Positions 13,279 to 57,451 of a DNA stretch of 64,000 bases are shown piece by piece. Source of the stretch: an uncultured Candidatus Saccharibacteria bacterium (GTDB lineage Bacteria > Patescibacteriota > Minisyncoccia > Phycocordibacterales > UBA2100); contig CAZWFX010000001.1 in assembly GCA_964633425.1 (NCBI GenBank), positions 74,687 to 138,686 of the forward strand, written 5' to 3'. Within the stretch, counting starts at the first letter, position 1. Every line of letters starts with the position of its first letter. The notes below the pieces were generated by a model, which was given only the letters and a program-made list of their open reading frames with translations, searched no databases and was not told where the DNA came from. Position numbers and translations under genes: made by a program.

Positions 13279-13308
13279 TCATATCCCCAGGCTACAATCT
13301 TTGGTGAA

Positions 13309-13866
13309 ATGCGAGTCTTCGCAGTAGACCTCAGTCTACACACCGGTTGGGCCTTTCTTGAAGATCAAAACGTCATCGACTACGGCCTTATAGAGGCCGG
13401 AAAACCCAAGGATTTTGGTAAATTCCCCTGGAATTACTTGAAGATAGCCAAGAGTCAAGCCAAGGCCATTTTTAGTCAAATTGCAGACAGGAAACCGGAT
13501 CTGGTTGTTGTGGAGCAAACCAATAAGGGGCAAAACCGATTCTCCCAGAAAATCCTGGAATTTTTGCATTTTGCCTTGCTTCAAGAGCTGGAGTGGGTGT
13601 ATGATGTCAAGTACGTGGACACTTCAGCCTGGAGGAAGGCACTAGACCTAAAGCTGACCAAAGAACAAAGGGCAGCAAACAAGCTTTCAAAGAAAAAGAA
13701 AAAAGAGCTAGGGATTTCAGGCAAGGTCACCCCGAAGCACCTTGCAGTAGAATATTGTTCTAAATTGCTAGGAAAGTCCTTCAAACTAAAGGACAATGAC
13801 ATTTGCGACGCCATCTGCATCGGAATGGCCGTGGCAAATGGGTGCAGCTTTTCGTTACCGACCTAA
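13309..13866 (+). CDS. RuvC-like Holliday junction resolvase
   Basis: N-terminal VFAVDLSLHTGWAF resembles the RuvC motif ILGIDPGxxxxGxAV. Acidic VVVEQ. C-terminal DNDICDAICIG resembles RuvC DAADALAIAI. Confidence 0.7.
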   Translation: MRVFAVDLSLHTGWAFLEDQNVIDYGLIEAGKPKDFGKFPWNYLKIAKSQAKAIFSQIADRKPDLVVVEQTNKGQNRFSQKILEFLHFALLQELEWVYDVKYVDTSAWRKALDLKLTKEQRAANKLSKKKKKELGISGKVTPKHLAVEYCSKLLGKSFKLKDNDICDAICIGMAVANGCSFSLPT

Positions 13867-13882
13867 CGAGGTTATATTACAA

Positions 13883-16297: not shown

Positions 16298-16300
16298 CGT

Positions 16301-16486
16301 ATGTCTAGGTCAAAACAACGATCTCGATGTCAGCATAGCTGCGTGTCGTGTAAATCATGGAAAAAGGGCTATCCGTCATTGACTGCGCAGGACGCCAAAT
16401 CTCTCGAAGATGCCCATCTTCAGCTCGAAGAGGCGAAGATGGTCAAGGATGAAGACCACGAAGAAGACGAGCAGGCTATATATTAG
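16301..16486 (+). CDS. Hypothetical small Cys-containing acidic protein
   Basis: 61-aa ORF directly after nrdJ. Confidence 0.3.
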   Translation: MSRSKQRSRCQHSCVSCKSWKKGYPSLTAQDAKSLEDAHLQLEEAKMVKDEDHEEDEQAIY

Positions 16487-16489
16487 ACG

Positions 16490-17272: not shown

Positions 17273-17275
17273 ACA

Positions 17276-17803
17276 ATGACAAAAAAGGTACCCGCTAATT
17301 TTACAGAACGTCTTACTGCGGTAGAGCAGCAACTGGAATTTCTTAACGGACAGATGCGTCTCCTTGATCAGGTCCTTGGAAACTACAACGAGCGTTTTAT
17401 CGCCATTACGTCAATTCTTGGGACAGACGCCGTTAAGGACGCCTTGGCTGGCGTAAAGTATGTTAGGGACAAGTCGAGGTTTGACGAGAACACCAAGGCG
17501 ATGGAAGACGGCTTGACCAAGGGCTTTATTAGAGACGTCGAAGTTGTTACGGAAGTGGCGGGTGTTTGCGGAACGCAGCTTCTGGACGATTCGGCGGATC
17601 CGACCAAGTTCTTTTCTCAATTCAATGAGTTTATATTTTCGCCGATGCTTACCGACGGACTGGGGTCGGTCCTGCTTGGTGCCAAGGTAGGAGACGTCCG
17701 GGAGTTTCGTGGAGCCAAGCTCCGCGTGGATCGTATCTACGAGGTAGACCACACCAAGATGACGGCCGAGATCGCGCAAGCAGAGGCGCCACAGGCGTCG
17801 TAA
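17276..17803 (+). CDS. Hypothetical protein
   Basis: GGCTATAT 10 nt upstream. Confidence 0.4.
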   Translation: MTKKVPANFTERLTAVEQQLEFLNGQMRLLDQVLGNYNERFIAITSILGTDAVKDALAGVKYVRDKSRFDENTKAMEDGLTKGFIRDVEVVTEVAGVCGTQLLDDSADPTKFFSQFNEFIFSPMLTDGLGSVLLGAKVGDVREFRGAKLRVDRIYEVDHTKMTAEIAQAEAPQAS

Positions 17804-17914
17804 TTTCCTTGCTTTTCCCTTGGTTGTGGGATACGATCAAGAAGTTATCCACAGGCCCTCATCAAGGTCAATCTTTGAAGAGACCCTGTCGGGTTATCGC
17901 CACAATAGGATTGC

Positions 17915-19048
17915 ATGTCTAAGAAAAACCTGCACGGAGTGTTACCGGCTCAAGTTATATCTTCTCTAAAAAAGATCGGAGAAGATGCCTTTCAGAAGCA
18001 AAAAGAGCGTCGAGACGAAGCTACGTTGATTACGTTGGGTCGAGAGTTGGCATTTGCCGACTACTTGTCTTCCTCCTTAAAAGAGGCTTTCAAAACCGAG
18101 ATCCCTAAGGTTTTTCAGGCCAAAAAGCCACCAAAAGCGAAGCCTATCAGAAGGGTCCTCAACCTGGTCCTCTCCGACACCCATTTTGGAGCCAATCTAG
18201 ATCCCAGAGAGACCCGGCGTAAGTATTCTTCCGTAGAAGCAGCACGGCGCTTGGCTAAGGTTGTCCAACAGGCCATTCAGTACAAAACCGAACATCGAGA
18301 TCACACCGAACTTCTGGTTCATGTTTTAGGTGATATGCTGCAGGGTCAGCTGCACGATCCAAGAGACGGAAATCCTCTGGCGGAACAGAGCGCGGAGACC
18401 ATTTGGCTCCTAAGTCAGGCATTCAAGAGATTATCTGAAGAATTTCCCGTTGTCAAGGGGGCGTTCCAGCCTGGAAACCATGGAAGAGACAAAGCCAGGC
18501 ACAAGGAAAGGGCTGTGTATCAAAAGTGGGACTCCAATGAGACCGTTTGTTACTACGCCATCAAGCAAATTGCTGAAATGGCAAATTGGAAGAACGTAAA
18601 GTTTGCCCTACCCTATACCCCATATTACCTGATCGACGTTCTTGGTCATGGGATTTTTGGTACCCACGGAGATACTGTACTCAACCCAGGAAATCCTCAC
18701 AAAACCATCAACGTAGGCAATATCAGCAATCAGATCAATAAAATAGTGGCCGCAGAAGCCAATATGGGCTCTCTCAAGCCGAAAATCTTCGTTATGGGAC
18801 ACGTCCATATCGGAGCAGACTTCAATCTACCATCAGACATCACGGTAGTGACCAATGGTTGCCTGATTCCACCAGATCCGTATTCTTTGTCTATCGGATC
18901 GTTCGACGCCGCCTGCGGGCAGCAAATGTTTGAAACCACCGAAGAACATCCGTTTGGGGATCATCGGTACATAAGGGTCAATGAGAGGACCGATCTAGAC
19001 TCGTCGCTAGACGGCCTAATCTTGCCTTTCAAAGGTCTTGATGCGTAA
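17915..19048 (+). CDS. Calcineurin-like metallophosphoesterase (second copy; SbcD/Mre11-like or phosphatase)
   Basis: Motifs LSDTHFG (DxH), LGDMLQG (GDxxD), GNHGRD (GNHD/E), THGD, MGHVH (GHxH). Confidence 0.65.
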   Translation: MSKKNLHGVLPAQVISSLKKIGEDAFQKQKERRDEATLITLGRELAFADYLSSSLKEAFKTEIPKVFQAKKPPKAKPIRRVLNLVLSDTHFGANLDPRETRRKYSSVEAARRLAKVVQQAIQYKTEHRDHTELLVHVLGDMLQGQLHDPRDGNPLAEQSAETIWLLSQAFKRLSEEFPVVKGAFQPGNHGRDKARHKERAVYQKWDSNETVCYYAIKQIAEMANWKNVKFALPYTPYYLIDVLGHGIFGTHGDTVLNPGNPHKTINVGNISNQINKIVAAEANMGSLKPKIFVMGHVHIGADFNLPSDITVVTNGCLIPPDPYSLSIGSFDAACGQQMFETTEEHPFGDHRYIRVNERTDLDSSLDGLILPFKGLDA

Positions 19049-20044: not shown

Positions 20045-21739
20045 ATGATTAACCCACCAACATGCCACTGCCACCCTCTTAGTCTTGACACTGGAAGTCA
20101 AATCAACGACTTTATCAAGAAAGAACAAGAGCTGGGAACCGGTTACGTTACCGCCACAGACCATGGATCCATGGGATCTGCGTATCTAATTTACACAAAG
20201 GCCAAGAAGGCCTCCCTAACACCGATTCTTGGTATCGAAGTCTACCTCAGAGACCCCGACTGCGACGTCTTAAAAGAACTGACACCAAGCCCGGAAGACT
20301 ACCTTAAATTTGGCAATCCCAAGTCTAAGTACATGCACGCCACTCTCCACTACATGGACGTGGAGGCCTACGAGGCAGGCTGCTCGGTTCTTTCAAAAGC
20401 CCCAAGAGAAAAGCACGGATCTGAAGACAAGCCCATCTACACCTGGGACGATATTGCTACCCTTGGGGCCAAAAATGTCACTGGAGGATCCGGCTGCCTT
20501 ATTGGTGTGGTGCAGCGACATCTCATGGTCGGAAGACCCGACGTCGCTGAAAAATACTATGTAAAATACAAGAACATGTTCAAAAAGGACAACTTCTTTG
20601 TTGAGGTTTTCCCTCATAAATGTACCCATAACTGGGTATCTGGTGTTTTCGTTACAGTAAAAGACAGTAACGGTGAAACCAAACAGCTTAGGTTTTACGA
20701 AGAGAAAAAGCTTAAGACCAATCACTCAGAAGAGGTCACGGCCTCTAGCCTGGCTCGATCTCCAGCCAAACACACCCACTTATTGGGGATTAAGAACTAC
20801 AGGACCTGGGACGAGGTCTCTTACAAGATCGTCTCCGTAAGGCACGTAGAAGAGTTTGTTCAAAATGAGTGTACTGTAGATGCCCCAGACGGAGATCTGC
20901 AAGCCAGAGCCAACAAATTCGTTTTGCAGATGGCCGAGAAGTACGGAGACCCAGTGATCAGCTCCGATGACAGCCACTACGTAAGCCCGGAAGACAAAAT
21001 TGTTCAGGACGTGGCTCTGGCTCAGTCGGGTAAGTGGAGGTTTTTCGGTAGTTATCATAGGCAGAGCGCGGCCGAGCAGTTTGCCTGTTACAAAGAGACT
21101 TTGGGGCTTGGTGAAAGGGAGTTCGAAAAATGGACGAACAACGCTCTAGAATGGGCTTCTAAATTCAAAAACTTTGAGTTTTCTTACAAACCATCACTAG
21201 CCAATAAATTCTATCCGTCCGACACCCTTGGATACCTAAAATCCTTGATGGAAAAGCACGGAAGAATAAATAACGCACCAGAATACACCCAGCGCCTAGA
21301 GACCGAAATTCAAATGCTTCACAACAACGGCAAAATCGATTTGTTGCCGTACTTCTTTCCCGCCGAAGAGGTCTGTGAAGAGTACGCTATCAACGGAGAG
21401 CTTGCGGGGCTTGGCCGAGGCAGTGCCGCAGGGTTGCTGGTGTCGTACTACCTGGGTATTACCCACATAGATCCAATAAAGGACGGCCTGTCAATGGAAA
21501 GGTTCATTTCCATTGACCGTATTTTGGGAGGCAAGCTTCCAGATATCGACCAGGACCTTTCGTCAACAGATTACCTTGTTGGTACCGCAATAGATCGCGT
21601 TACGGTAGAAATGGAGGACGGTACCGTTAGGGAATATTTGTCTGAGGAACTCATTCAGACCGAAGAGGGCCCCATGACCATCTTCGAAGCGGCAACTAAA
21701 AAGCTGGATATCTTGGATTTGGATGAGAGTGATGAATAA
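20045..21739 (+). CDS. dnaE: DNA polymerase III alpha (DnaE) N-terminal segment: PHP domain plus palm, with an acidic C-terminal extension
   Basis: PHP His cluster (HCHPLSLDTGS...ATDHGSM...GIEVY...SDDSHY). The palm motif LAGLGRGSAAGLLVSYYLGITHIDP...ERFIS...LPDIDQD matches [23 protein letters not shown]...ERFLNPER.SMPDIDIDF. Confidence 0.8.
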   Translation: MINPPTCHCHPLSLDTGSQINDFIKKEQELGTGYVTATDHGSMGSAYLIYTKAKKASLTPILGIEVYLRDPDCDVLKELTPSPEDYLKFGNPKSKYMHATLHYMDVEAYEAGCSVLSKAPREKHGSEDKPIYTWDDIATLGAKNVTGGSGCLIGVVQRHLMVGRPDVAEKYYVKYKNMFKKDNFFVEVFPHKCTHNWVSGVFVTVKDSNGETKQLRFYEEKKLKTNHSEEVTASSLARSPAKHTHLLGIKNYRTWDEVSYKIVSVRHVEEFVQNECTVDAPDGDLQARANKFVLQMAEKYGDPVISSDDSHYVSPEDKIVQDVALAQSGKWRFFGSYHRQSAAEQFACYKETLGLGEREFEKWTNNALEWASKFKNFEFSYKPSLANKFYPSDTLGYLKSLMEKHGRINNAPEYTQRLETEIQMLHNNGKIDLLPYFFPAEEVCEEYAINGELAGLGRGSAAGLLVSYYLGITHIDPIKDGLSMERFISIDRILGGKLPDIDQDLSSTDYLVGTAIDRVTVEMEDGTVREYLSEELIQTEEGPMTIFEAATKKLDILDLDESDE

Positions 21740-21784: not shown

Positions 21785-22051
21785 ATGGACCCCAAATCAC
21801 TAGCAAAATCCTTTATGGATCTTTCAGTTGAAGATCAGGCCGAATTCTTTCTACAATTAACCATCTTGTTCCGTAAGGTGATGCCCTCGACGCAAGAGCG
21901 GCTTCTCAAGGAACTGGCCAATAAGATTTACTTTTTGGATCACGAAGACGATTCGTACCTAAACGGTCTTGTGGTGGCTCTGTTCGATCAACACGACGAA
22001 GAAGAAAAAACCGTGTATGTGGAATCTACAAAAAATGGGCTGAATAATTGA
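21785..22051 (+). CDS. Hypothetical acidic 88-aa protein inserted between the two dnaE segments
   Basis: The ORF fills the gap exactly. No homing-endonuclease motifs. Confidence 0.3.
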   Translation: MDPKSLAKSFMDLSVEDQAEFFLQLTILFRKVMPSTQERLLKELANKIYFLDHEDDSYLNGLVVALFDQHDEEEKTVYVESTKNGLNN

Positions 22052-24331
22052 ATGAAGATAAAGGAAATCCTCTCGGTTAAAACAGAACGGAAGCCCGGAT
22101 GGCTAGATCGCCGCTTCGGAGAGCACTTTGCTCGAATTTCAACCGTTACTACCAGGAAGCTGAAATATGCCATCAGGGACGTCGCCCGCTTTACTTACGG
22201 CAAGGGCATGATCCCGTATGACATCGAGCGACTGGCCAAGGCCATTCAGACTCCACCACAGGGCGTGAACGACTACGACTTCGTATTCGGCTATGAAGAG
22301 GCAGGACGTTTCGTTGAGGGTACGATAAATACTGACCCAGCTCTAAAGGAGTATGTCAAAAAATACCCTAACCAATGGAAGATTGTAGTCAAATGCCTTA
22401 GCTTGGTTAGAAACAGCTCGCTACACGCCTGTGGTTATGTAATCGCCTCCAGGCCAATCCGGGAGTTTATGCCGCTCTCTTCCATAAAGGGAACTGAGTG
22501 TACAGAATTCACGGCTAATTCATCAGACGGGATATCTTCCGTTGAGGGCGTAGGCGGCATCAAATACGACTACCTTAAACTAAACTCTCTAAAAGATGTT
22601 CAGATTGCAGTTAAACTAATACAAAAACGATCTGGACTTCAAATACCTGATTTTATTACAAAAAATGGGCGATGTCCAAAGGTCAGGATCCTACCATACA
22701 AAGGCCAATTAGAAGACATCTGGACGTCGTTACCTGAAGAGCCTGAAGTTTTTTCGGACATTTCCAATGGGGATACGGAGTCTGTTTTTCAGCTTTCTAC
22801 TCAAGGAGCCTTGAAGTGGCTGAAACTTTTTAATCAGGTAGGAAGGGACGAAAAGCCACTAATCTCGTCTGTAAGAGATATCGCTATTTTTACAGCCCTA
22901 GATCGACCAGGGCCGCTCGATATCGAGCTTACCAATCCAGAAGACGGGTCTAAGCACAACGCCTTGGTTGAGTACGTGAGAAGGGCCAGAGGACTGCCTC
23001 CATCAGAGGATATTTTGGAGGTCTTTGACAAACTTTTTCCTGAGACCAAAGGGATTCTTGTTTTCCAAGAACAGCTCCAGAGAGCATACCAGACACTCAC
23101 AGGCTGTTCTGGGGCTGAGGCCGATGAGTTCCGCTCAAACGTCGCCAAGAAGAGGGCGACCAAGGTGGCGGCCGCTTACGAGACGTTCGTTAAGCGGGCT
23201 GGGCAAATCCTTGGATCTGAAGAAAAGGCGGCTCAGGTATTTCAAGCTTTCGGAACCTGGTCAAACTATGGGTTCTGCCTAGCTCACGCCGTTAGCTACG
23301 CAAGACTTGCGTACGTTATTGCCTTTCTTAAGCGTCATTTTCCACTTGAATGGTGGACGGCCGTGTTGTCAAACGCCACCAAGGACGATATCTCCGATAA
23401 GTTCTGGCCAAAATGCTCAGAGATTATTGATTTGCCAGACATGTCAAATCCAAGAGATCGATTCGATATCGTAAATGAAAGAATTCAAGCCCCAATAGGA
23501 ATGCTTTGGGGTGTCGGCGGCAAGGCTCAAGAACAAATAGTCGCTTTTGCCCCATATTCTACAATCGATGAGTTTTGTGGTGGTATCCAAAAGTACAAGG
23601 AGCTAAATGCTATCACCACAACCGAAACAAAAGAAGTTAAGGGCGTGGTGAAGACTGTTTCTAAAAGGCGTCTTGGAAGATCGGCTGTCCATTCTGGTGT
23701 CGTGTACTCGCTCGTTGTCTCGGGAGCTATGGACAGCCTGTTTGAGCCAGGCCTTACCCTTGAAGAAAAGCTCCTGGCATACGAAAAAGCCATTGCCAAG
23801 GCCTCTGGAGCAAAAAAACACAAACCAGTCAAACCACAATTTAAGGATCTGAACGCCTACAACCAATTCCTAATGAGGAAGAAGCTCTTGCCAGTCTTTA
23901 CACAGAGCCTTCCAGATCTAATGGTAGACTGTAAACATCCATTAGTTTCAACTACTTATGGCAAACCCAGGTACAAGATAGCCGATCGGTTTGTGGACTT
24001 ATGGGGACTTAAGGAGCTTCGGCAGTTTGAAGAACACGGAAGTTCCATTCCGTCCGGAGGCTACCGAGCCGCCATTCCAGGATACGTCTCTAGCGTTAGG
24101 CGTTTTACGTTTGATGGCAACAAGGAAGCTTGTGCGATTGCTTTGAATATTGAGGGCGTCAATCAAGAATTTGTTAAGTGGCCGGATTGGAACTCTAAAA
24201 AGCTAGATCCGCGATACGACGCGGATCTGGAAAAGAGTCTGCTAGTTTTACATGTCGTAAAGCGACGTGAAGATCGGCCGTTCGTCGTTGAAAACTTTGA
24301 GGTTTTGGCCTCTAATCAAGCAAAACCGTAG
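22052..24331 (+). CDS. dnaE: DNA polymerase III alpha (DnaE) C-terminal segment: fingers and downstream domains
   Basis: [24 protein letters not shown] matches DnaE [46 protein letters not shown] matches R.TGxHAAGVVIS..PL...VPL. Confidence 0.8.
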   Translation: [759 protein letters not shown]

Positions 24332-24362: not shown

Positions 24363-27300
24363 GTGACACCAGAAGAAAAACAGCAGCTTGAGCGCCAGCT
24401 CCTGTTCACTCCTTGCAAGACAAAGGAGGAGCTGGGGGACTGGATAGATCACATGCTGGGGTATCGGTTACCCGACTGCATTGTTGACGCCGACTCCAAC
24501 TCCTCTCCATTAGATCTTGTTTGGGAGATCTACCACGAAGCTCTCTACGTAAACAATCCAAATTTCGAAAAGATTCTAGCATACGCGAACAGATTTGGCG
24601 CGAAAACCCTGGGCGCTAGTGCCCTAGAGCTTTTGATGGTCTTTCATGACCAAAGAGACGTTGTCCACCTGGCTGCCATTGAGGAGCAGTCAACAGACTG
24701 CCTCAACTACGTTAAAAAGGCACTCCGCAATCCCGTAATGGCACCTTTTGAGGTTCAGGGAGATAAACGAGCCATTACGATCCAAGTCTTTAAAAAAGAC
24801 GGTAAATACTATTCCCCTAAGGAATATGAAAAAATCCCGGATGTAGAAAAGTTTGGGTTTCAGGAGTATTTCAATAAAATTGAAGTCATTGTGGCGACTC
24901 CAAAGTCGCTCAACGGGAAGCATGGCGCTTTCTTTTGTATTGATGAAAATACACCATTACTAATAGCAGATAAAACCAGATCGAGGAAAAGTCGGTCGGC
25001 CAAATTTGTCTTTAACACCATAGCCGGGCTCCCGGTAACAGGCAGGAGGGGTCGTCTTCCTATAGAAGATCTTGACATTTCTAACCCACAAAAGGATATT
25101 GAACTACTTACCTTCAATTTCTCTACAGGAAGCCTGGAGCCAAAGAAGATCCTTCGCGGACATCGTAAAAGGGCACAAACGATAAATATCGTGGCGGGCA
25201 AGAGGAGTTTGATTTGTACGCTAGATCATCCCATCTTTGTATTCGGGAAAGGCTTCACAGAAGCCGGTGCTGTGTCTCTAGGAGATAAGATTCTCGCGAT
25301 CGGCAAGGGTGGCTGGGGAAATCGACAATTCCTGTCAAAGGAGATTCAAAACAAAGATTCGATCATACGAGATCCTGGAGATCTATTTGAGCAGGTCGTC
25401 TTAGGTTCTCTCCTTGGCGACGGATCTTGTCTAAAACATACTCGCAGCAAAAACGCTTATTTTTCTGAACGACACTGCATTGAGCAGGCTGAATATCTAA
25501 ACTGGAAACGTCAGATAATTGGTCAGCAAGTAAAAACCTCAGAATGTAAAAACATAGCCAGCGGGTATACCGGGAATCCTCAAGCTGGATTCTATACACA
25601 AAATAGTCATATATTTAACCAATGGTTAGGATTTAAGCAGAACTTTCAAAATCTCGAAAAGATTAGTCCCATTGGACTTGCAGTTTGGTATATGGACGAC
25701 GGGTACGCTAAAGGATTTAGTATAGCTTCTCATGGGTTCACTAAAAATCAAAATGAGAGACTTGTTGAAATTCTTTGGAATAAATTTCAAATAAAAGCTA
25801 GAGTTGCTAGAGAAGTTAAGAAAGACGGAAGATCCTATTGGTATATAACAGGAGGATTAGATGCAAAAAAACGCTTGGTAGAAATTTGTCGTCCATACAT
25901 ACACCCACAAATGGCGTTCAAGTTTGATATAGAAAGTCACTCCAAACAGTGTGTCGCTTGTGGTCATAAATTTTGGCCACATCAGCAAGGACCAAGTTCA
26001 AAAACTTGTGGACAGGCCGTATGTCTGTCGGTCCTAGCGGGTACATTTGAAGCCGTGTCTGTCGATAGAATTGAACCTGCAGGAGAAAGAACCGTTTATG
26101 ATTTTACGGTAGAAAATAACCACAATTTTTTCAGTGGACAGATCCTTAGCCATAATTGTATGGACGAAACAGACCTTCTTGACAACGAGTCTATCGTCCA
26201 AGAAGCCGACGGAGTACCCACCCCAACAAAAGATAGAAGAGCCAAGCACCCGATCGTCTATATGACATCTACCAGAAAGAAGGCGGCGGGTAGGGTCCAG
26301 AAGCTTATTGATAGGGCAGAGCAAGAAGACATCCGTGTTAGACACTGGAACTTGATTGACATCACAAAACCATGTCCCCCAGAAAAACACCAACCAAACG
26401 AACCTAAGGTCTCGATGTATGTGGACGACAACGCCCTCAAGGCCATCCCAGAAGAATCATACGAACAGCTAAACGAAGGCGATCGACTAAAATATCAAAA
26501 ACACGAGATGTTTCAGGGCTGTAAGTCCTGCCCATTGGCCGCCACTTGTAAGAGTCGGTTGGCTACTCATCAAAAATCCAGTAATTCTACACTCTTACTG
26601 GATCACGCATTCACCACCAAAAAGGTAACTAAGGGAAATATTGAATTCATTAAGTCGCAGTTTCTATGCAGGAAACCGCTGTCTACCGGATCTATCTTTT
26701 CTAGGTTTAGCAGAGAAAGGCATTTACTTTCAGCGGCTGAGATCTATGAAAAGCTAGAGCAGCAAGAGGCCCCAGCCAACTTTAACAAGCAAAGTCTAGT
26801 CAAGTATCTAAAGGCTCATCCACTGGCCAAATTTTACGGTGGTATTGACTTTGGTTACACCCACATGTTTGTTGCTATAGTCGCGGCCAAGGTCGGTCTC
26901 CACTGGTTTGTATTGGACTGCCTTATGGCCACCGAGTTGGAGACCATGGAATGCGTGGATTTGTGCAAGAGATCCTTTTATCATTACGGAGCTGAATGGT
27001 ATCCGGATCCTGAAAATCCACAACTTATAAGTACGTTTAAAAAGCATGGATTTAATTGTATCGATTTTTCCAAGAAGAAAGGGACGGTCTTGGCTGGAAT
27101 TGAGGCGATTCGAGCAAAGCTCAATCCTGGACCAGATGCCGAACCTCAAATGTTCTTTCTGAAGGGAGATCCTTCTATTGACGGGGAAGAAGAGTCTTTA
27201 GTGGAAGCCATGGAAAAATGGGCCTGGAAGTTGTCTCCTGCCGGAGAGCCGACAGACATCCCTGCAGAAAAGCATAAGGACCAATGCTTTACGTCAGATA

Positions 27301-28538
27301 CGGAGGTACTGACCCCATCTGGGTGGGTTTCCCTTAAGGACATCACAACAGAGGATGAGGTTTTGTCTATTACCAGAAACGGCGTCGCTTATTTTGAAAA
27401 ACCGTATCGGGTGATCCATCAAACATATTCTGGACCTATGATTTCAATTCATAAAAATCATTTAAAGTTCAGCTCAACTAAGGGACACGCCCATTCCGTA
27501 ATAAGTCAATTTAACTGGAGGGTAAAGAAGAGATGGATTTTTGATAAAAAGACGTTCGATGAACTCCCGGCTGAGTCTTATTGGGCTAACTCGTTCAAAG
27601 AAATTGCTGAAGGTCCGGGTCTGTTTGAGGGAGGACAAGACGAGGCCTGGGTTGCTGGGTTTTGGGTTGCCGAGGGATGCTTTGATCGGTCCAACCCAAC
27701 TCAAATTCTAATAGATCAAAAAAAAGAAAAACACAAAAAAGAATGTCGTGAGAGGCTTAGCCGTCTCGGGTGGTCATATTTTGAAAAGACAAGAGCACAA
27801 GATCGGCTTATGACTAGGTTTTGTATTAATAGTCAAAGAGATCGAATAGTTAAATGGAAAGAGTGGTTTAATCATGGAGCCAAGAATAAAAAACTCAATC
27901 CGGGTATTGTTTTACAAATGACAAAAACGGAACGTCGCTCGTTTTTTGATGGATATATGGCAGGAGACGGCTCTACGACCCAAAGTCTTTGGCATTTTGA
28001 TTCTATTTCCAGAGATCTTATTGATGGAATCCAATTTTTAGCGTTGTGCCTTGGATATGGATGTCGTGTAGTTACCTATGACTGTATGAGAGAAGATCGT
28101 CCTTCTACCCTTAAGGGTAAGATGCATCGATCATGGAGAGGACATGTTTTAAGATCTAGACCTGTTTGTCATATCAAAAAGAGTAGTTTTTTTGAATGGA
28201 CGGCTAAAGACATTGAGGTTCACTGTGTTTCCGTATCCACTGGGATCTTTTTGGCTAGAACCGCAGGAGATGTCTTCGTGGCCGGAAACTGTGACGCATT
28301 GCGTTATATGGTTTACAACATCACTCCGGTAAGGGCCACAACCGGCAACCGAGGAGGCCGACCTACCAACGAAGAGGTGGCCTCTAGGCCCAAAACCCTG
28401 TCAGAGCAATTTTGGGATACCATGAAATCAGAAGGCGAGCCTCTTTTTGGCCTAGATATGTCAGAAAGGCCGGATCCTTATGACACAGACCCGTCGTCCG
28501 GAAGGCCGTCGCCGAAGATCCGTAAGAGGTTCTTTTAG
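24363..28538 (+). CDS. Terminase large subunit (TerL) interrupted by two inteins; about 649 aa of extein
   Basis: Extein: deviant Walker A ANRFGAKTLG. The Walker B GAFF|CMDE is reconstituted across intein 1. RNase-H-like nuclease motifs YGGIDFGYTH and KHKDQ|CDALRYMVYN are reconstituted across intein 2. GTG start preceded by GGCTATAT inside a hairpin. Confidence 0.75.
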   Translation: MTPEEKQQLERQLLFTPCKTKEELGDWIDHMLGYRLPDCIVDADSNSSPLDLVWEIYHEALYVNNPNFEKILAYANRFGAKTLGASALELLMVFHDQRDVVHLAAIEEQSTDCLNYVKKALRNPVMAPFEVQGDKRAITIQVFKKDGKYYSPKEYEKIPDVEKFGFQEYFNKIEVIVATPKSLNGKHGAFFCIDENTPLLIADKTRSRKSRSAKFVFNTIAGLPVTGRRGRLPIEDLDISNPQKDIELLTFNFSTGSLEPKKILRGHRKRAQTINIVAGKRSLICTLDHPIFVFGKGFTEAGAVSLGDKILAIGKGGWGNRQFLSKEIQNKDSIIRDPGDLFEQVVLGSLLGDGSCLKHTRSKNAYFSERHCIEQAEYLNWKRQIIGQQVKTSECKNIASGYTGNPQAGFYTQNSHIFNQWLGFKQNFQNLEKISPIGLAVWYMDDGYAKGFSIASHGFTKNQNERLVEILWNKFQIKARVAREVKKDGRSYWYITGGLDAKKRLVEICRPYIHPQMAFKFDIESHSKQCVACGHKFWPHQQGPSSKTCGQAVCLSVLAGTFEAVSVDRIEPAGERTVYDFTVENNHNFFSGQILSHNCMDETDLLDNESIVQEADGVPTPTKDRRAKHPIVYMTSTRKKAAGRVQKLIDRAEQEDIRVRHWNLIDITKPCPPEKHQPNEPKVSMYVDDNALKAIPEESYEQLNEGDRLKYQKHEMFQGCKSCPLAATCKSRLATHQKSSNSTLLLDHAFTTKKVTKGNIEFIKSQFLCRKPLSTGSIFSRFSRERHLLSAAEIYEKLEQQEAPANFNKQSLVKYLKAHPLAKFYGGIDFGYTHMFVAIVAAKVGLHWFVLDCLMATELETMECVDLCKRSFYHYGAEWYPDPENPQLISTFKKHGFNCIDFSKKKGTVLAGIEAIRAKLNPGPDAEPQMFFLKGDPSIDGEEESLVEAMEKWAWKLSPAGEPTDIPAEKHKDQCFTSDTEVLTPSGWVSLKDITTEDEVLSITRNGVAYFEKPYRVIHQTYSGPMISIHKNHLKFSSTKGHAHSVISQFNWRVKKRWIFDKKTFDELPAESYWANSFKEIAEGPGLFEGGQDEAWVAGFWVAEGCFDRSNPTQILIDQKKEKHKKECRERLSRLGWSYFEKTRAQDRLMTRFCINSQRDRIVKWKEWFNHGAKNKKLNPGIVLQMTKTERRSFFDGYMAGDGSTTQSLWHFDSISRDLIDGIQFLALCLGYGCRVVTYDCMREDRPSTLKGKMHRSWRGHVLRSRPVCHIKKSSFFEWTAKDIEVHCVSVSTGIFLARTAGDVFVAGNCDALRYMVYNITPVRATTGNRGGRPTNEEVASRPKTLSEQFWDTMKSEGEPLFGLDMSERPDPYDTDPSSGRPSPKIRKRFF
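24936..26156 (+). mobile_element. Intein 1 in TerL (407 aa) with a LAGLIDADG endonuclease, inserted at Walker B
   Basis: Block A CIDENTPLLIADK. LAGLIDADG-like LGSLLGDGSCL and LAVWYMDDGYA. Block F/G TVYDFTVENNHNFFSGQILSHN. +1 Cys. Confidence 0.75.
27285..28289 (+). mobile_element. Intein 2 in TerL (335 aa) with a LAGLIDADG endonuclease, inserted at the nuclease catalytic Asp motif; non-canonical C-terminal GN
   Basis: Block A CFTSDTEVLTPSGW. LAGLIDADG-like WVAGFWVAEGCFD and FFDGYMAGDGS. C-terminal ...DVFVAGN with +1 Cys. The penultimate residue is Gly where His is usual. Confidence 0.65.
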
Positions 28539-28558
28539 GAGGCAATCTTTAAGTCCAA

Positions 28559-31635: not shown

Positions 31636-32310
31636 ATGATCACTAAGAAAATCGCTAAAGCCATTGGCTCTATAATTGATAGGGCCCTATTGACCATCAC
31701 AAACAACCTTTTGGATGGCATTGAGGAGGTGTATCGGTGGTCTGCGGTATTGGCCGGAGCGTCTTCGGCTGACAGGGAGGCCCTGGCGGACCTTTCTCGT
31801 GTTTCTGAGATGTACATGGTCGCAGAGACGGCAAGGGCCAAGGCGACCGCCATGAAAGCGGTTTCAGACGCCATCAAGAACGAGACGTCGGTTGAAGAGG
31901 CCTTGGGACAGGCAATGGAGAAGGCCAAGGCCAACCTGACCAGAATCATTGAAAATGAGGTTAGTGTGGCCAAAAACCTTGGGGCGCTTGAGGGGATAGT
32001 TGAGAAAAGCCCTTCAGACGATCCTGTGATGTTTTGGATTTGCCAACACGATCACAAACTTTGCGAAGAATGCAAAGAACTTCACCTTTTACCAGACGGA
32101 TACACCCCCAGGGTCTGGAAGGTGTCTGAGGTAGAACACGGATATCACAAAAAGGGAGACCCAAGCCCCAAGTTTGGCGGTTTGCACCCAAACGAGAGAT
32201 GCGCTCCAGCCAGCGTTCTACCGGGATGGGGGTTTGATCGTGGCCAGCTGAGATGGATTTCCGACGGTCACGACGAGTGGGCCACACAAAGAAAACTAGA
32301 CAAGAAATAA
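31636..32310 (+). CDS. Head morphogenesis protein, Phage Mu F / SPP1 gp7 family
   Basis: C-terminal conserved LHPNERC (family signature HPNCRC), preceded by CQHDHKLCEEC. Located after the portal gene. Confidence 0.55.
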   Translation: MITKKIAKAIGSIIDRALLTITNNLLDGIEEVYRWSAVLAGASSADREALADLSRVSEMYMVAETARAKATAMKAVSDAIKNETSVEEALGQAMEKAKANLTRIIENEVSVAKNLGALEGIVEKSPSDDPVMFWICQHDHKLCEECKELHLLPDGYTPRVWKVSEVEHGYHKKGDPSPKFGGLHPNERCAPASVLPGWGFDRGQLRWISDGHDEWATQRKLDKK

Positions 32311-32326
32311 TCTTTGTAGGTAACAC

Positions 32327-32695: not shown

Positions 32696-32737
32696 GCTAG
32701 AAACTTAATCTTTACCACTAGGAGATTTTGAGATAAA

Positions 32738-33761: not shown

Positions 33762-33861
33762 TAACTTAGACCTCCATTTTTAGATTGCATCCAGAAAGAT
33801 GTGGTTGTCAAGTCCTAAATAGCCCCTTGACGAAAACGCCTTCATGGACTAGGTTTGCCAA

Positions 33862-35206: not shown

Positions 35207-35231
35207 CTCTTGTTACCTAAAAGATTACCAC

Positions 35232-35761: not shown

Positions 35762-36328
35762 GTGGAACACAAAAAGAAGCCTGTTGGTGGAGAGCAGCCC
35801 AACAAACTACCTCTTTTCCTAGACAGGAAGAGGAAGGTGTCCTACTCGTTGTATCGGTGGGATAAACCCGAGGAGGTGCTTTATCGGGTCAACAAAGAAT
35901 CAACTCTTCGGCTTTTGGTGGAGGAGGCGATGGCAAAAGGGGTGTCTCTGGATCGGGTAAACCTAACCAATGCGTACCTGTACGGCCTAACCACACCCAA
36001 GACTCATAGGGTTATGCGATCCGCCAAGTTGGACTGGTCCCTACTGGCGTATTCTCAGTGGACCCTGGTGGATTTGTCGTATTCTTCAATACAAAAGGCG
36101 GTTTTAACAGGCAGTCAGTTTAGGATGTGTGTCTTTGAAGAGGTGGATTTTGAAGAATCTGATCTAACCAGATGTCGTTTTGTGGAGTGCAGGTTCGTTC
36201 GCTGTAACTTCAAGAACACCGTTGCTAAAAAGACCAAGTTTTACAAGTGCCTGTTTGACAGGTGCCTTAGTCAGCCAGATCTTGGTTTTAAGTCTCACTT
36301 GATAAAAACCCAAAAAATAGACTTCTAG
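35762..36328 (+). CDS. Pentapeptide-repeat protein
   Basis: Clear 5-residue periodicity: VDLSY SSIQK AVLTG SQFRM CVFEE VDFEE SDLTR CRFVE CRFVR CNFKN. GTG start preceded by GGCTATAT. Confidence 0.5.
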   Translation: MEHKKKPVGGEQPNKLPLFLDRKRKVSYSLYRWDKPEEVLYRVNKESTLRLLVEEAMAKGVSLDRVNLTNAYLYGLTTPKTHRVMRSAKLDWSLLAYSQWTLVDLSYSSIQKAVLTGSQFRMCVFEEVDFEESDLTRCRFVECRFVRCNFKNTVAKKTKFYKCLFDRCLSQPDLGFKSHLIKTQKIDF

Positions 36329-36823: not shown

Positions 36824-39800
36824 TTGTTTGACGCACCGCGTTATGCATCACGACAGCCAGTAATCTTTACACCAGTGAGTCAGTTACCTACGCCACAGAC
36901 AAGATCTCAGATACTCGGCTCTATGGTCGAGTATTTTCTTTCAAAGTACGGGCTTAAATCCCTTAAAACTGGAAGTCCTGTGCTTTCTCTGTTTGAGGCT
37001 ATCGCCCAGTCTCAACTGAGAACCTCCGACGACATCTTTTCAACCCTCCGAGGCATCGCCCTGGAGTTCGCCACCGGCCAGTCCCTGGACCGGCTCGGCC
37101 TGGACGAACTGACACCTCGACTGGTCGCTAAAACCGCCAGCGGTTATACCACATGGGGAGACTCCTCCTTTACCAAGATCTCCACCGTGATCTTCCAAGG
37201 ATCTGGCCCGGTAATCGTAGGCTCTAGTTCCATCGCTGTCTCCGACGCTACCGACTTCCCCACAGTCGGGACCCAATACGTCTACCTCGGAAGAGGAACC
37301 TCTAATTACGAAGGTCCATTGGAGATTTCTTCCATCGACAATCCAGGCGTAACTGGTGGAAATTATTGGAGAATTAATCTAGTAGGGTCGACCACAAGGT
37401 ATCATGCACCTGGCGAGTCCGTTATTTTGGCACAGGGAGGCAACCGGACCATTGCTTCGGGCCAGCTCGTTCAAACGGCCCAAGGGGCGCTTTCAGCGCC
37501 TTTGCGGTTCAGGGTGGTATACACTGCCACCATCCCTGACGGTGAAGACACTTTAGAAAACGTTCTTGTCACGGCAGTCCAGACAGGCCTTTCTGGAAAT
37601 GTTATCAAAGAGGGTATCAACACCGTTGTCTCTCCTCCATATGCGGGAGCCACGGTCTTCAACCCTTCTCCATTTACGAATGGTAGAAACCTTGAGCGGG
37701 ACGAAGACTACAAGGAAAGGATCAAGCTCCGGAGGCGATCTCGGACGCTTGGTACGGCCACCGCTCTAAAGACCTACGCTCTTGGAGTTGAGGCTCCAGA
37801 CGAGAATGCCACGGTCACGTCGACCTCCCTGGTCACCAAGGAGGGAGAGCCGGCCGTTCTTTATATCGATGACGGTACCGGATACGAGGAAAGACACTCC
37901 GGAGTCGCGGAAGAGGTCTTGATCGATCTGGCATCTGGCGGGGAACAGTATTTTAGGGTTTCTCAGGTGCCGATCTCCAAGGCCGTGTCGCTGACCAGCC
38001 TTTCAGCTCCTTACGTACTACGAGCAGGGAAACTCGCGTTTAGCGTGGGCGGCGTGGTTACGGAACACACCTTTGACGCCAGTTCATTTTCTTCAATTTC
38101 TTCAGCTTCGGCCAACGAAGTATGTTCCTCCATTAACTCAAATGCTGGCCTGAACTGGTCCGCCAGAACTTACGACGGCGGGTCCAAGATCGCCGTTTAC
38201 GCTAAATCAGATACCAACGATGACGTCCAGTTGTCGACCGCCTCCTCAGATGACGTAAATGATGTCCTTGGATTTGGTTCTGAGAGGGTCCTTACTACCA
38301 GCCTATACAAGAACGATCTGTTGCTTAGCAAGGACGGGTTGGCGGCGACTGTTTATTCCAGACCCTTCAGCGAGTGGCAGTCTCTGGCCAGCCCCCAGGG
38401 CCTTTCCCTGAGCGTTGATGGAGTCCAGATGGACTACACGTATGTCTCCGGAACCCCTACGGTTGGACAGCATACAGCATTTACAGACCAGGACTTTATT
38501 GACGCGGAAACGGGATATAGCACCCTGGGCAAGAATAGCTTGGCCGCATGGGCGAAGGTGCTAAATTACCGTATACCTGGAATTACAGCCACTGTCGTAG
38601 GTAATCGACTGGCCATCACCTCCAACAGAGGAAAGTCTGACAGCGCGTCAGTACAGACACTGTCCGGGACACTCGTTACTAATTCTGTGTTTTACGAGCA
38701 GGCCAGTTCACTGTCGTCGTCTATCGGGAAAAATTCAGACTACACGATCAATCGTAACACAGGGGAGATTCGTCTCCAGACACCACTGATCGCAGGAGAC
38801 AAGCTGTCTCTTGGTACTTCGTACACCAGGGCCTTTTTGCAGACCCCCGACGTTCTTTCTACCGTGCTGTCTGCCGATGCCAATATGTGGTTCGTTGTGG
38901 ATGGCCAGGCGGAGGTGGTTGCCATCGGGGAGATGCTTGGGCAGGCCTACACGCTAACCAAGACGGCCACGGCGTGGGGAGCCTTACAGGCCCTCACCAA
39001 CTCTCGACTGGCTGCAAATGCGGAGGTCGGAGACTGGCTGATTGTCTGGGATTCATCCCCCAACGCCCTTGGCGTTTCTGGGGCCTATCGGATCAGCCGC
39101 GTGACTGGAACTGACGTGGAGTTTGAGGTTGACGGAACTACGTCCAATGGCTCCGGCACCTTTGCGGAAGGCGGCATCGCCCTAGTAAGAACCAGTCAGC
39201 AAGTGCAGAAGCTTACCCTGGCGCGACTTACAGGTGGAACCCCAAACACATATACGGCCACCTCTTTGGCTAACCTGATTGATTTGCGAGGTGCCACTGC
39301 GTCCGTCTATCGCACCAACAAAGTGCGAATTGCCACCAATTCATTTGGTGACGTAAGGGACATTGCTCTGGTGGCTCAAGATCAGGCTGCGGAAGACTTT
39401 GGTCTTAGCTCGTCCAGCTACACAGACAACCTTCAGGGACATCTGGGATCGATTGAGACTTCCAATGGGCAGGTCGGTACTCCCGTCTTTCAGTCCCTTA
39501 ACGTATCTACGGCAGGTGCCACTACGATAGACGTGGATAACTGGTCGTCGTCGGGGATCTTCACAGATCCGCCCAGCCATTATTCCGCCATGGGCCTTTT
39601 TAGCCCATCCTATTCTTTGGCCCGTCCCCGGTTCGGATCGAACAAGGGCTTTGTGTCTTCTCTTTCCGACACCACTCCGGGAGCACCAGACACGCTGGTT
39701 CTAAGGAACACGGCGGCCCAGGACTGGCTTGAGACCACACAGCTAGCCCTTTTAAGTCCGTACTGCCTATCCTGGAACGATCAACTCAACCTGATTGTTG

Positions 39801-42562: not shown

Positions 42563-42593
42563 CTACAAAAACGGCAATCTTTTAAGGTAGAAT

Positions 42594-46933: not shown

Positions 46934-47447
46934 ATGTCCAACTACATCACAATCGATCCACTATCCGTCTGGCGGTGGATCTGCTTCCAGCGTCTTTGAA
47001 GAGGCGTCGAGTTCAGATTTCAACACCTATGCCTTCAACTGGTTCTCCAACAGCCAGGACAGCTCTGGCCCAGTAGACGGTGGAATCGGCGGAACCGGCT
47101 TCGGAGCCAACAGTGTTACTTGCCGCAACGTGTCAAATCGCTACGAGTTTTCGCTGGCGCCCAAGCACAAAATCGTCCAAATTGTCACGGCATCTAGGGC
47201 TGTGTCTCTGATCGACGACGTAATCCTTGTTGACACGACCGGTGGAGCAGTCACGCTTACGCTGCCAGACGCGACATACGGGGCTCGCGAGCTGACTATT
47301 AGGCGCAAGGCGGGTACGGCCAGTATCACGGTCACCCCGTACGGCACCCAAAAATCAACGGGGCCTCAAGTCTGACCATCAGTGATGACTTGGCTACTCC
47401 GATTCAATCGGACTGGTCTAACTGGTGGACACTCAGGTAGCCACCCC
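46934..47447 (+). pseudogene. Small gene disrupted across three reading frames
   Basis: An ATG with an AAGGAA SD at 46934 runs only 22 codons. The coherent sequence continues in the +1 frame (...GGSASSVFEE...ITVTPYGTQK) up to 47375. After the run cccaaaaatc it continues in another frame (INGASSLTISDDLATPIQSDWSNWWTLR). Confidence 0.35.
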
Positions 47448-47482
47448 AACGCTCCCTCGTTCCCCCCAGTAATCTTTAGGAG

Positions 47483-52231: not shown

Positions 52232-52296
52232 CGATTGTGGCGTTTTGCCACATGTGGTCCGTAGCCTCAACAACACAGTAATCTTTGTAGAGACAA

Positions 52297-55374: not shown

Positions 55375-55844
55375 TCGCAAGTGTACTCCACTAGGAGTTG
55401 ATAGTCTTCCGGGGTTAGTTCCGAAACCCCACAAACCGTCCCATTCATCAAATGACATCCTGGGTGCAGGGTCTCATCCATGTGGGCCTGGATTCCGATG
55501 ATGTGGCCCATTTCGTGAGCTACCACGTCTGGACCGGCTCCGTTAGCCACCCAAAAAATTGCGTCGACTGCAATTGAATAGCCCCACAGGGTAAGGCTGG
55601 CCTTTGCGTCCATTTGTTCTGCTCTAATAAACATCTGTCCTGGAATTGGATGTCCCACCTTGAATCGGTAACCGGCTGGTACCCAAAAGTCCAGGCCTTT
55701 TTGGACTACCTCGTCTGAGAGTCCGGAGTTGTTTTGGACTATGTATTCTTGGCCTGTGTTGTAGTAATTCTGGCACTCAATTTTGCCACAACCACCAAGG
55801 AGAAACGCCAACGACAACATCAATGCGGACATGTTTTTGCTCAT
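55371..55844 (-). CDS. Secreted lipoprotein metzincin-like zinc peptidase
   Basis: Lipobox LLGGCG. HEMGHIIGIQAH matches HExxHxxGxxH. A sigma70-like promoter lies immediately upstream. Confidence 0.55.
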   Translation of the reverse strand: MSKNMSALMLSLAFLLGGCGKIECQNYYNTGQEYIVQNNSGLSDEVVQKGLDFWVPAGYRFKVGHPIPGQMFIRAEQMDAKASLTLWGYSIAVDAIFWVANGAGPDVVAHEMGHIIGIQAHMDETLHPGCHLMNGTVCGVSELTPEDYQLLVEYTCD

Positions 55845-55850
55845 GTCCTC

Positions 55851-55880
55851 ACTCTAAGCAAGAGCGGGCCGGGTTGTCAA
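55851..55880 (-). promoter_or_regulatory. Sigma70-like promoter TTGACA-18-TAGAGT for the metzincin lipoprotein gene
   Basis: The minus strand reads agggcTTGACAacccggcccgctcttgctTAGAGTgaggacATG. The -10 lies 6 nt from the ATG, so the transcript would be leaderless. Confidence 0.4.
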
Positions 55881-55883
55881 GCC

Positions 55884-56501
55884 CTATTTTAGCTCTTTGG
55901 GTTTCTTTGCCAGGACTGGCATTTTGGGGCCCTTCTTTACGAAGGGCTTGATCTCCACAGACTTGGGCTCCGGAGTTTGCTCGACCGGCTCGGAAACAAC
56001 CGCAGCACGGACCTCTACGGCCTTGGCCTCGGACGAGACAGGGGACACTTCGATTTCAGGGTCCTTTACCTTGAACTCAAAGGCCACCCCTGGCTTCTTT
56101 GAAGCGGCCAAATCCTCCGCTGCCTTAATGGCCTCGGCTGAAATTTCTCGGGGAACAACACCCTTGGCGTTTCGGGTATTCTCCTCTTCCTCTAACCTAA
56201 GACGTTCGGCCTCTTCCTCCGCAAGACGAGCAACCTCTCGGGCTGTTCTTGCCGCAGCCTCTTCCCGAGCGATCCTTGCCGCTGTAGCGGCGGCCTTTTC
56301 GGCCTTGGCTTTTTCCCATTCCTCGGCCTTGGCTTCGTAGTTTTCTAGTTTAAAGATTTTACCAGGGATGGGATCTCCACTAACCAAAACGGCCAGTCCA
56401 GCTTCTTCCAGCTCAACGGCCTGTTCGCTCGTGACTTCAACGCAGTGTTCTGGCCAGATCCCCAAAATCTTCTGGGAAGTTCTATTTTGTAAGACTTTCA
56501 T
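55884..56501 (-). CDS. Hypothetical Ala/Glu-rich coiled-coil protein
   Basis: ORF between the tailspike and the peptidase. Confidence 0.35.
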   Translation of the reverse strand: MKVLQNRTSQKILGIWPEHCVEVTSEQAVELEEAGLAVLVSGDPIPGKIFKLENYEAKAEEWEKAKAEKAAATAARIAREEAAARTAREVARLAEEEAERLRLEEEENTRNAKGVVPREISAEAIKAAEDLAASKKPGVAFEFKVKDPEIEVSPVSSEAKAVEVRAAVVSEPVEQTPEPKSVEIKPFVKKGPKMPVLAKKPKELK

Positions 56502-57409
56502 TAGTAGGCTTCCTTGTTAAGGTATAAGAAGATCTGTGCTCCAGGTGTGGCTGCTACGGTGTTTAGGGCTCTTCCCAAGATATTTCCAGAAACCACCTTT
56601 TTCCCATACCCTCCAGTGGCCCCGGAAACTCCAACAGCATCTCCTGCACCTTGATTTGTGCTGGCTGTTCCTGCAAACCAGCAACGCTCCATAATAAAGC
56701 CGGTGTCTGAGGCAGTTACTAGAAACTCCGAAGCTCCTGATTGCTGTAAACCAAAGAACTGGCAGTCGTGGACATAGGCCTGTCCCATGTCGTGTAGGTA
56801 CAATAACGAATACTGGAGATCCGCCCCGATTAAGGAATTCCCATGGAACAGTAAGTGATCGATCTCGACTCTGGCGCGGCCATCGGTTCCGCCTATGTTT
56901 AGAAGAGCAAAGGCTCCGTTATTTGAGTCCAGGTAAATACGCGATTTACTGCCTTCTCCGGTGAGTCGAATCGTCTCGTCGTCCGTAGCACCAAAGGTTA
57001 GGGTGGTCAGTGCGGCTGTTACTCTAAATGTACCTCGTGGAAAGTAGACAGTGCCTCCAGCAGAGGCCGCCGTCAGAGCCGCACTAATCGCTGAGGTGTC
57101 ATCCGTAACCCCATCCCCTACAGCACCATAATCAGTTACGTTATAGACATCAAGCCCGGTCCCTCCACCGGCCGCAGCTGCCCACTCCAGACCAGTCGTC
57201 TGAGCGGAATTTGCTGTCAACACATAGCCGTTGGTTCCCGCAGCCAACTGTACCCAGTCCGTTCCAGTGTTGGCTAGGATCTGCCCCTTCGAGCCATTCA
57301 ACGGGAACCCATCCGGAGTCTCCCACTCCAAATTCTCCGAAATTGTGCCGTCCGTGTTCCTTTTGGTAATTTGAAGGTTGGAGTCGACGATGTTGATCTT
57401 TACGCTCAT
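56501..57409 (-). CDS. Tailspike / depolymerase-like protein with a pectate-lyase-superfamily beta-helix
   Basis: VTDYGAVGDGVTDDTSAI is a hallmark of pectate_lyase_3 / GH28-like tailspikes. The N-terminal QILANTGTDWVQLAAGTNGYVLTANSAQTTGLEWAA is homologous to the N-terminus of the 42594 fibre. AATCTTTGTGGTAG lies upstream on the minus strand. Confidence 0.6.
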   Translation of the reverse strand: MSVKINIVDSNLQITKRNTDGTISENLEWETPDGFPLNGSKGQILANTGTDWVQLAAGTNGYVLTANSAQTTGLEWAAAAGGGTGLDVYNVTDYGAVGDGVTDDTSAISAALTAASAGGTVYFPRGTFRVTAALTTLTFGATDDETIRLTGEGSKSRIYLDSNNGAFALLNIGGTDGRARVEIDHLLFHGNSLIGADLQYSLLYLHDMGQAYVHDCQFFGLQQSGASEFLVTASDTGFIMERCWFAGTASTNQGAGDAVGVSGATGGYGKKVVSGNILGRALNTVAATPGAQIFLYLNKEAY

Positions 57410-57451
57410 CTACCACAAAGATTGTCGTAACTACCACCAATCTTAAAGACC

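Follow-up and report, generated by a model that had tools for sequence, protein, structure and literature searches.

AATCTT as a candidate core of -35-less late promoters, with a truncated phage-encoded sigma factor as its possible reader, in an Mx1-like phage

In phage T4, late transcription uses the sigma factor gp55 and TATAAATA promoters, which lie at the -10 position with no -35 element. The middle and late promoters of Thermus phage P23-45 are likewise -35-less, with an extended -10 element and many leaderless transcripts, and they depend on small phage proteins that remodel host sigma-A. The phages of the phiEco32 and 7-11 group encode a sigma factor, and the cores of their middle and late promoters are -10-like, TGATGT being an example (PMC4331800). 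Here, we analysed a 64-kb stretch of DNA from contig CAZWFX010000001.1 (positions 74,687 to 138,686; hereafter the window), with a guanine-plus-cytosine (GC) content of about 50%, which is part of a large tailed phage. The word [C/T]AATCTT recurs there in front of virion, tail, lysis and packaging-type genes, as the initial annotation had observed, and it is found at orthologous positions throughout a family of phages related to Myxococcus phage Mx1. Based on sequence comparisons, [C/T]AATCTT(T) is probably the -10-like core of a -35-less, phage-sigma-dependent class of late promoters in this phage and the Mx1-like family. Its candidate reader is a divergent sigma-70-family protein encoded on the minus strand (582 to 1649), downstream of a helicase gene.

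The resemblance to T4 late transcription, proposed in the initial annotation, extends to a -35-less -10-like word, late-type genes, family-wide conservation and a phage sigma without region 4.2. As in T4, the phage makes its own sigma-family protein, and a short conserved word at the predicted -10 position is repeated before many late genes, on both strands and also within the ends of upstream genes. The word differs from TATAAATA, however, and the sigma, of about 355 amino acids (aa), spans regions 2 to 4.1 and matches group-1 sigma structures, whereas gp55 is a minimal, region-2-only protein. The spacing here would also imply leaderless mRNAs for many genes. No match to the gp55-like family was obtained in Pfam or PHROGs searches of the window proteins, no gp33 or sliding-clamp co-activator was identified, and no clamp gene was recognized in the window. 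The AATCTT system is not a member of the T4 late system.

Sequence analysis likewise underlies the phiEco32/7-11 scheme, in which host promoters serve early genes and the phage sigma reads a short core ahead of middle and late (structural) genes. It belongs to an unrelated phage family with another core word, and the anti-sigma partner described there was not found here. With P23-45, the window shares -35-independent late promoters whose transcription starts coincide with or adjoin the start codons (both features predicted here), but its phage carries its own truncated sigma. The closest parallel is Mx1 itself. Both phages have the helicase-sigma gene pair and CAATCTT before structural genes. 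In the window, however, the pair is on the minus strand, far from the terminase and portal genes. Mx1 has longer leaders with Shine-Dalgarno (SD) sequences more often and a different second motif, TAGATCAAC. The Mx1 genome announcement annotates a 'putative RNA polymerase sigma factor' and does not describe promoters (PMC10720576). Our literature search found no paper describing promoters of Mx1-type phages.

A portal sequence identical to that of the window is on record in a 156-kb NCBI contig. A megablast search with 20 kb of the window against 50,697 phage records returned no nucleotide-level relative, and a scan of metagenome contigs with the portal gave no confirmed relative. The phages used for comparison were obtained through protein searches. 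The nearest named phage by protein is Mx1 (OR576727; L006 in our set), which infects M. xanthus and is the sole family member in culture, whose portal is 45% identical to that of the window and whose genome is complete, independently annotated and of 55.5% GC. The set also comprises six metagenomic relatives, among them L001, L002, L004, L005, L010 and L011. The portal of L005 (39% GC) is 55% identical to that of the window, and the most distant relative is L002 (IMGVR_UViG_3300033072_000988), with 35% identity for the portal and 28% for the sigma.

The initial annotation listed eleven copies of the word, all of which exist, some of them displaced by 1-7 nucleotides (nt). The two minus-strand copies fall at 35220-35227 and 57417-57423 and the endolysin copy at 57439, while 32709 becomes 32707 and 17863 becomes 17870. 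Four good copies had been missed, at 36861, 59314, 61884 and, on the minus strand, 62497. The sharper definition, [C/T]AATCTT, gives 27 copies in the window, 14 of which lie 7-26 nt 5' of credible starts. The window contains 25 copies of AATCTTT for 11.7 expected, and nine of TAATCTTT for 2.3 expected, a number reached in none of 100 shuffles. We compared all 6- and 7-mers in the -40 to +3 regions of 64 mechanically called open reading frame (ORF) starts with the whole window. The top two upstream words were GGCTATA (p 3e-11) and AATCTTT/TAATCTT (p about 1e-10). An annotation-free test, which looked for a word followed within 5-17 nt by an ATG or GTG opening an ORF of at least 80 codons, ranked AATCTT best of all 6-mers (15 of 51 copies, against a background of 5.8%; p 1e-7). 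It also ranked first among 60 composition-matched permutations of its own letters. The enrichment upstream of genes that had been claimed thus holds in the k-mer, annotation-free and permutation tests, and the motif is real.

The genes behind the 14 copies are as follows, with distances measured between the final T of [C/T]AATCT and the start codon. The gene between those for the terminase and the portal (326 aa) has CAATCTT at 28543 to 28549 (+), 10 nt before ATG 28559. Two head-module genes follow copies of TAATCTT. The first copy (32308 to 32314, +) is 13 nt before ATG 32327 of a 122-aa gene, and its TAA is the stop codon of the preceding gene. The second (32706 to 32712, +) is 26 nt before ATG 32738 of a 252-aa gene and is the sole copy in the window with a long leader and AGGAG. 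Four copies precede giant tail or baseplate genes. TAATCTT at 36861 to 36867 (+) heads a divergent unit and is 8 nt before an in-frame GTG (36875), which moves the start of a 1912-aa ORF to give a protein of ~1895 aa with a baseplate-wedge-like domain. CAATCTT at 42575 to 42581 (+) lies 13 nt before ATG 42594 (700 aa), and TAATCTT is found at 47470 to 47476 (+), 7 nt before GTG 47483 (1436 aa), and at 52279 to 52285 (+), 12 nt before ATG 52297 (1025 aa). The genes for a tailspike-like protein (302 aa) and the endolysin are back to back, with CAATCTT at 57418 to 57424 (-), 9 nt before ATG 57409, for the former and at 57438 to 57444 (+), 8 nt before ATG 57452, for the latter. In this 42-bp gap (57410-57451) the two divergent copies form a perfect 7-bp inverted repeat, AAGATTG-N13-CAATCTT, at 57417-57445.

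The remaining motif-bearing genes code for a baseplate-like 852-aa protein, a RuvC-like resolvase and three small ORFs. The baseplate-like gene has CAATCTT at 59314 to 59320 (+), 8 nt before an in-frame GTG (59328) that corrects the start of an 863-aa ORF. The small ORFs are preceded by TAATCTT at 35221 to 35227 (-), 15 nt before ATG 35206 (120 aa); at 61884 to 61890 (+), 8 nt before ATG 61898 (94 aa); and at 62491 to 62497 (-), 7 nt before GTG 62484 (101 aa). The resolvase copy, CAATCTT at 13295 to 13301 (+), 8 nt before ATG 13309, is ambiguous, as GGCTACAATCTTT can also be read as belonging to the other class described below (GGC + TACAAT). Outside the 14, TAATCTT at 19017 to 19023 (+), 25 nt before ATG 19048 of a 131-aa gene, is a possible member. 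CAATCTT at 17869 to 17875 (+), 40 nt before ATG 17915, is a doubtful one and is absent before the L005 orthologue.

The same word is found 5' of structural genes in Mx1 and the six metagenomic relatives. Among the 7-mers upstream of Mx1 ORFs, CAATCTT comes second in enrichment, and about 20 copies precede structural genes, including those for the portal, a putative prohead protease, the tail sheath, the tailspike, a baseplate assembly protein and a baseplate J-like protein. Another copy precedes the lone plus-strand gene within the early region. AATCTT ranks first of 60 permutations in Mx1 too. In the pooled other relatives it ranks first when the start codon is 4-12 nt away and fifth of 60 when 4-40 nt are allowed. 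Orthologues in L004, L005, L001, L010 and L011 are also preceded by copies; in L005, the orthologues of the 326-aa, 1912-aa and 1025-aa genes each follow CAATCTTT, and a fourth gene follows TAATCTTT. When the regions 5' of the gene between terminase and portal were aligned for eight phages, whose portals are 35-74% identical to that of the window where measured and whose GC contents range from 38% to 55%, AATCT was the sole invariant block, with diverged flanks.

The motif also suggests other start codons in Mx1. ATG 13023 would replace 13002 for the 'putative prohead protease', and in the tRNA region ATGs at 47050 and 48198 (17050 and 18198 of the L007 locus) may be alternative starts or belong to unannotated ORFs.

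As for its architecture, the motif resembles a -10 element. The generic -10 pattern is TAnnnT, and [C/T]-A-A-T-C-T, whose second base is A and whose sixth is T, agrees with it; this is the predicted -10, in a register possibly one base off. Among 43 aligned copies, no position between -20 and -1 is conserved above about 60%, and the sole other signal there is a weak G at -1. Thus, there is no conserved -35, as the initial annotation had proposed, and a scan of the motif sites for the sigma-70 consensus gave no match. Several copies head divergent units, namely the two in 57410-57451, the one at 36861 and three of four L005 copies (3044, 8983 and 13176). As initiation must occur within a few dozen bases at such sites, a promoter is needed there, and the 42-bp region between the tailspike-like and endolysin genes contains the two copies and nothing that resembles a sigma-70 promoter. 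Mx1 copies lie anywhere between 7 and 37 nt from the start codon, and the long leaders have their own GGAGG, which fits a promoter and not a ribosome-binding signal. Conversely, the short distances leave no space for another -10 before the coding sequence. The promoter interpretation is thus well supported by inference, and the AATCTT class would drive the late genes for virion, tail, lysis and packaging-associated functions. A scan for intrinsic terminators 5' of the motif-bearing genes did no better than chance and was not informative. A Bacteroidota-type TAnnTTTG -7 element was considered and rejected, since the spacing is one base off and classical TTGACA -35 boxes are present in the same genome.

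Two other promoter classes appear to coexist with the AATCTT class in the window. The most enriched upstream word, (G)GCTATA(T), is also -35-less. It is found at 7474, 10131, 16278, 16475, 17259, 20025, 24349 and 35747 (+) and at 3254 (-), in front of replication or middle genes as well as the terminase gene, 6-9 nt from their start codons. As GGCTATAT, it precedes the helicase-sigma pair and the genes for the chaperonin, the SbcC-like protein, polymerase III alpha and the terminase. L005 has this second word (GGCTATAT, as GGCTATAAT), but it is not conserved in Mx1, where the second motif, TAGATCAAC, lies about 17 nt before the ATG. The third class is host-like, with TTGACA, a spacer of 17-18 nt and TAnnnT, at 33811 (-), 33827 (+), ~36815 (-), 55880 (-) and 59512 (-). 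The ATG follows TAnnnT by 6 nt at the first four sites, implying leaderless mRNAs. These host-type promoters precede small genes, four of them with the 6-nt spacing, that are embedded in the structural module and mostly antiparallel to it. Two of the small genes code for an AAA_33 kinase-like protein and for a protein with a weak DPBB/lytic-transglycosylase match. A pentapeptide-repeat protein of 188 aa (35762-36328, +), which may be a DNA mimic or an anti-defence gene, is encoded behind a GGCTATAT word within the structural module.

The sigma-like protein comprises region 2, which in sigma-70 factors serves core binding and -10 recognition, and regions 3 and 4.1, with no region 4.2. It shares 38% identity with the Mx1 protein annotated as 'putative RNA polymerase sigma factor' (WNM70309.1; Mx1 2071-3078). 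The window protein alone matched no Pfam family, and the Mx1 homologue falls below the Sigma70_r2 threshold (19.5 bits for a threshold of 24). A profile built from 36 homologues, however, matches RpoD/SigA structures with E values of 1e-8 to 1e-6. Its alignment covers region 1.2/2, region 3 and the first helix of region 4 (LxxxExxVLxLR, region 4.1), and in all 36 aligned homologues the protein ends 3-5 residues past that helix. As the -35-reading helix-turn-helix of region 4.2 is absent, this sigma cannot read a -35 box. The AlphaFold model of the protein has a predicted local distance difference test score (pLDDT) of 85.8, and its top 50 Foldseek matches are all sigma chains. The homologue is encoded by the window, Mx1 and five of the six motif-bearing metagenomic relatives, that is, by every relative of sufficient length.

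We considered whether the ORF that follows the sigma gene might supply a detached region 4 and discarded that idea, because this ORF resembles GroES and matches no Pfam family. The GroES-like ORF (307-585, -) follows the sigma gene directly, with a 4-nt overlap, an arrangement shared by Mx1, L010 and L011; the gene for a GroEL-like chaperonin lies at another place in the window (7490-9289, +). No second sigma or other transcription factor was found among 20 more small window proteins.

Should the word be a promoter, it would probably be read by the host core RNA polymerase together with the phage-encoded sigma 582-1649, a pairing that we favour on account of their co-conservation. AATCTT is conserved while GGCTATAT is replaced by TAGATCAAC in Mx1, so that AATCTT is the word that tracks the conserved sigma. 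In the window, GGCTATAG lies upstream of the helicase gene that precedes the sigma gene, and in L011 the sigma gene stands behind its own host-type promoter, TTGCAC-N17-TGGTACAAT. Given these upstream elements, the sigma would be made before the late genes and would then switch on the AATCTT promoters.

A real promoter with another reader is an unlikely alternative. In that case, the host holoenzyme, with sigma-A or an alternative sigma and perhaps a phage activator or appropriator, would recognize AATCTT, and the phage sigma would read the GGCTATAT/TAGATCAAC class. The window has two -35-less classes for one sigma-like gene found, TAATCT matches the generic -10 pattern, and the window and Mx1 sigmas, at about 37% identity, could have diverged in step with the middle-class motif. 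However, the motif is invariant over phages of 38% to 55% GC, which presumably have different hosts, and this points to a phage-borne reader. The host-type promoters of the same window have a clear TTGACA -35 and the AATCTT class has none, and the placement of the L011 sigma gene under a host-type promoter is as expected of a late sigma that is made early.

The distances between the word and the genes bear on how the mRNAs begin. Nine of the 14 copies fall at 7-10 nt (seven of them at 7-8 nt), four at 12-15 nt and one at 26 nt, and the range for the GGCTATAT and TTGACA classes is 6-9 nt. Bacterial RNA polymerase starts 6-9 nt downstream of the -10 element. Given spacings of 7-10 nt, transcription starting about 7-9 nt past the hexamer would begin at, or 1-3 nt before, the start codon of most genes, and a minority would carry leaders of 5-20 nt. 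This implies that most AATCTT-class mRNAs are predicted to be leaderless or near-leaderless (leaders of 1-3 nt), like those of the other two classes. In Mx1, a spacing of exactly 7 nt to the ATG occurs eight times; position -1 is then usually C and position +1 the first base of the ATG, and four of these starts are those annotated by the depositors.

The initial annotation had interpreted the same -10-like word differently, with close transcription starts, leaders of 10-20 nt and a functional SD in every gene of the class, so that SD-led late genes would be opposed to leaderless early ones. We consider this version quite improbable. It is consistent with the AGGT or AGGAG that follows the motif at 32308, 35227, 42575, 47470 and 32706, and with the GGAGG of the long-leader copies in Mx1. 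Nevertheless, the nine copies at 7-10 nt have no room for such a leader, and neither do the eight at exactly 7 nt in Mx1. Functional SD sequences would be expected 5-10 nt ahead of the start codon and inside the transcript. Six of the 14 copies have an SD-like run, defined as a match of 4 nt or more to AGGAGGTGA, between word and start, and eight have none. One of the six, GGTGA at 13295, is only 2 nt from the ATG, too close for SD function, and the remaining runs overlap the predicted transcription start site. A usefully placed run is thus present in about five of 14 and missing in eight or nine. SD sequences are used by genes inside operons and by the long-leader copies of Mx1, in which the eight 7-nt copies coexist with leaders of 10-37 nt carrying a clear GGAGG. 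The division between leaderless early and SD-led late genes does not hold in the window, and Mx1 has a mixture.

An RNA-level signal, namely an endoribonuclease processing site or a non-SD translation enhancer in late 5' leaders whose transcription starts further upstream, is very unlikely. The motif is strand-specific and near start codons, and sense-strand copies inside window genes number one for 7.4 expected under a codon-shuffle null. This depletion is not special to it, as AATCTT ranks 10th of 60 permutations in the window, and sense copies inside Mx1 genes are not depleted (26 for 23.7 expected). We discarded sense-strand depletion as a sign of RNA cleavage, since AT-rich hexamers are generally below codon-shuffle expectation and the effect is absent in Mx1. 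Moreover, the divergent units would still require further promoters, the Mx1 copies stand at 7-37 nt with separate SDs, and no complementarity to the standard 3' tail of 16S rRNA is evident, though no host rRNA was compared. The narrower proposal that [C/U]AAUCUU is the site of a phage or host endoribonuclease, cutting long late transcripts upstream of each cistron to yield leaderless or short-leader mRNAs, is if anything even less credible, being disfavoured by the other promoters that divergent units need and by the 26 uncut sense copies inside Mx1 genes. Finally, an artefact of chance or composition, arising from TAA stop codons and T-rich intergenic DNA, is practically negligible, as the overlap with a stop codon concerns one copy only, that at 32308, and chance is excluded by the shuffles, the permutation controls and the conservation across eight diverged phages.

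Several observations weigh against reading AATCTT as the -10 core of late, sigma-dependent promoters. The resolvase and the 94-aa and 101-aa ORFs are of unknown function or not obviously late. In L002, the word is extended to AATCTTAATATT with a TAATAT hexamer directly after it (8836, 13797 and 14825), and there the actual -10 could be TAATAT, with the word immediately 5' of it. This form may also be a variant promoter architecture, useful for analysing covariation with the sigma. The register of the hexamer (TAATCT or AATCTT) is ambiguous, which makes the predicted start sites uncertain by 1-2 nt. A purine run (AGGT/AGGAG) stands at the predicted start of four or five copies, where the true start may be closer and give short SD-led leaders. 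Co-conservation is the one line of evidence that pairs the sigma with the motif, and the second -35-less class, GGCTATAT, could be the target of the sigma instead. The window also covers 64 kb of a genome of roughly 156 kb, and further specificity factors may exist.

Among the proteins encoded in the window are a helicase, a DnaB with a probable intein, a GroEL-like chaperonin, an SbcC-like ATPase, a ribonucleotide reductase and a two-piece DNA polymerase III alpha. There are also genes for a large terminase with a probable intein, the portal, very large tail and baseplate proteins, the tailspike-like protein and the endolysin. The large terminase (24363-28538, +; 1391 aa) and the DnaB-like helicase (4458-6974, +; 838 aa) each harbour a LAGLIDADG/Hint-type insertion, probably an intein, and inteins are also found in some portal homologues of the Mx1-like family (P0094, P0109, P0110 and P0114). 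DNA polymerase III alpha is split into a PHP/N-terminal part and a finger/C-terminal part, with an 88-aa ORF between them (ORFs 20045-21739, 21785-22051 and 22052-24331, +). L005 has the same split without the spacer ORF, and Mx1 has one 3.9-kb gene.

The main value of these analyses lies in a directly testable promoter/sigma pair in Mx1 and in corrected gene starts. They also provide a testable regulatory map, with host-type early, middle and conserved late classes and a candidate late sigma, for a large and almost unstudied family of phages of 140-180 kb with about a hundred to two hundred environmental relatives. The promoter/sigma pair could serve as an orthogonal set in Myxococcus. Should these readings be confirmed, a natural relative of sigma-70 would have kept regions 3 and 4.1 while losing region 4.2, and leaderless mRNAs would be the source of many late structural proteins. 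Both points would then help in understanding -35-independent initiation and host-independent translation.

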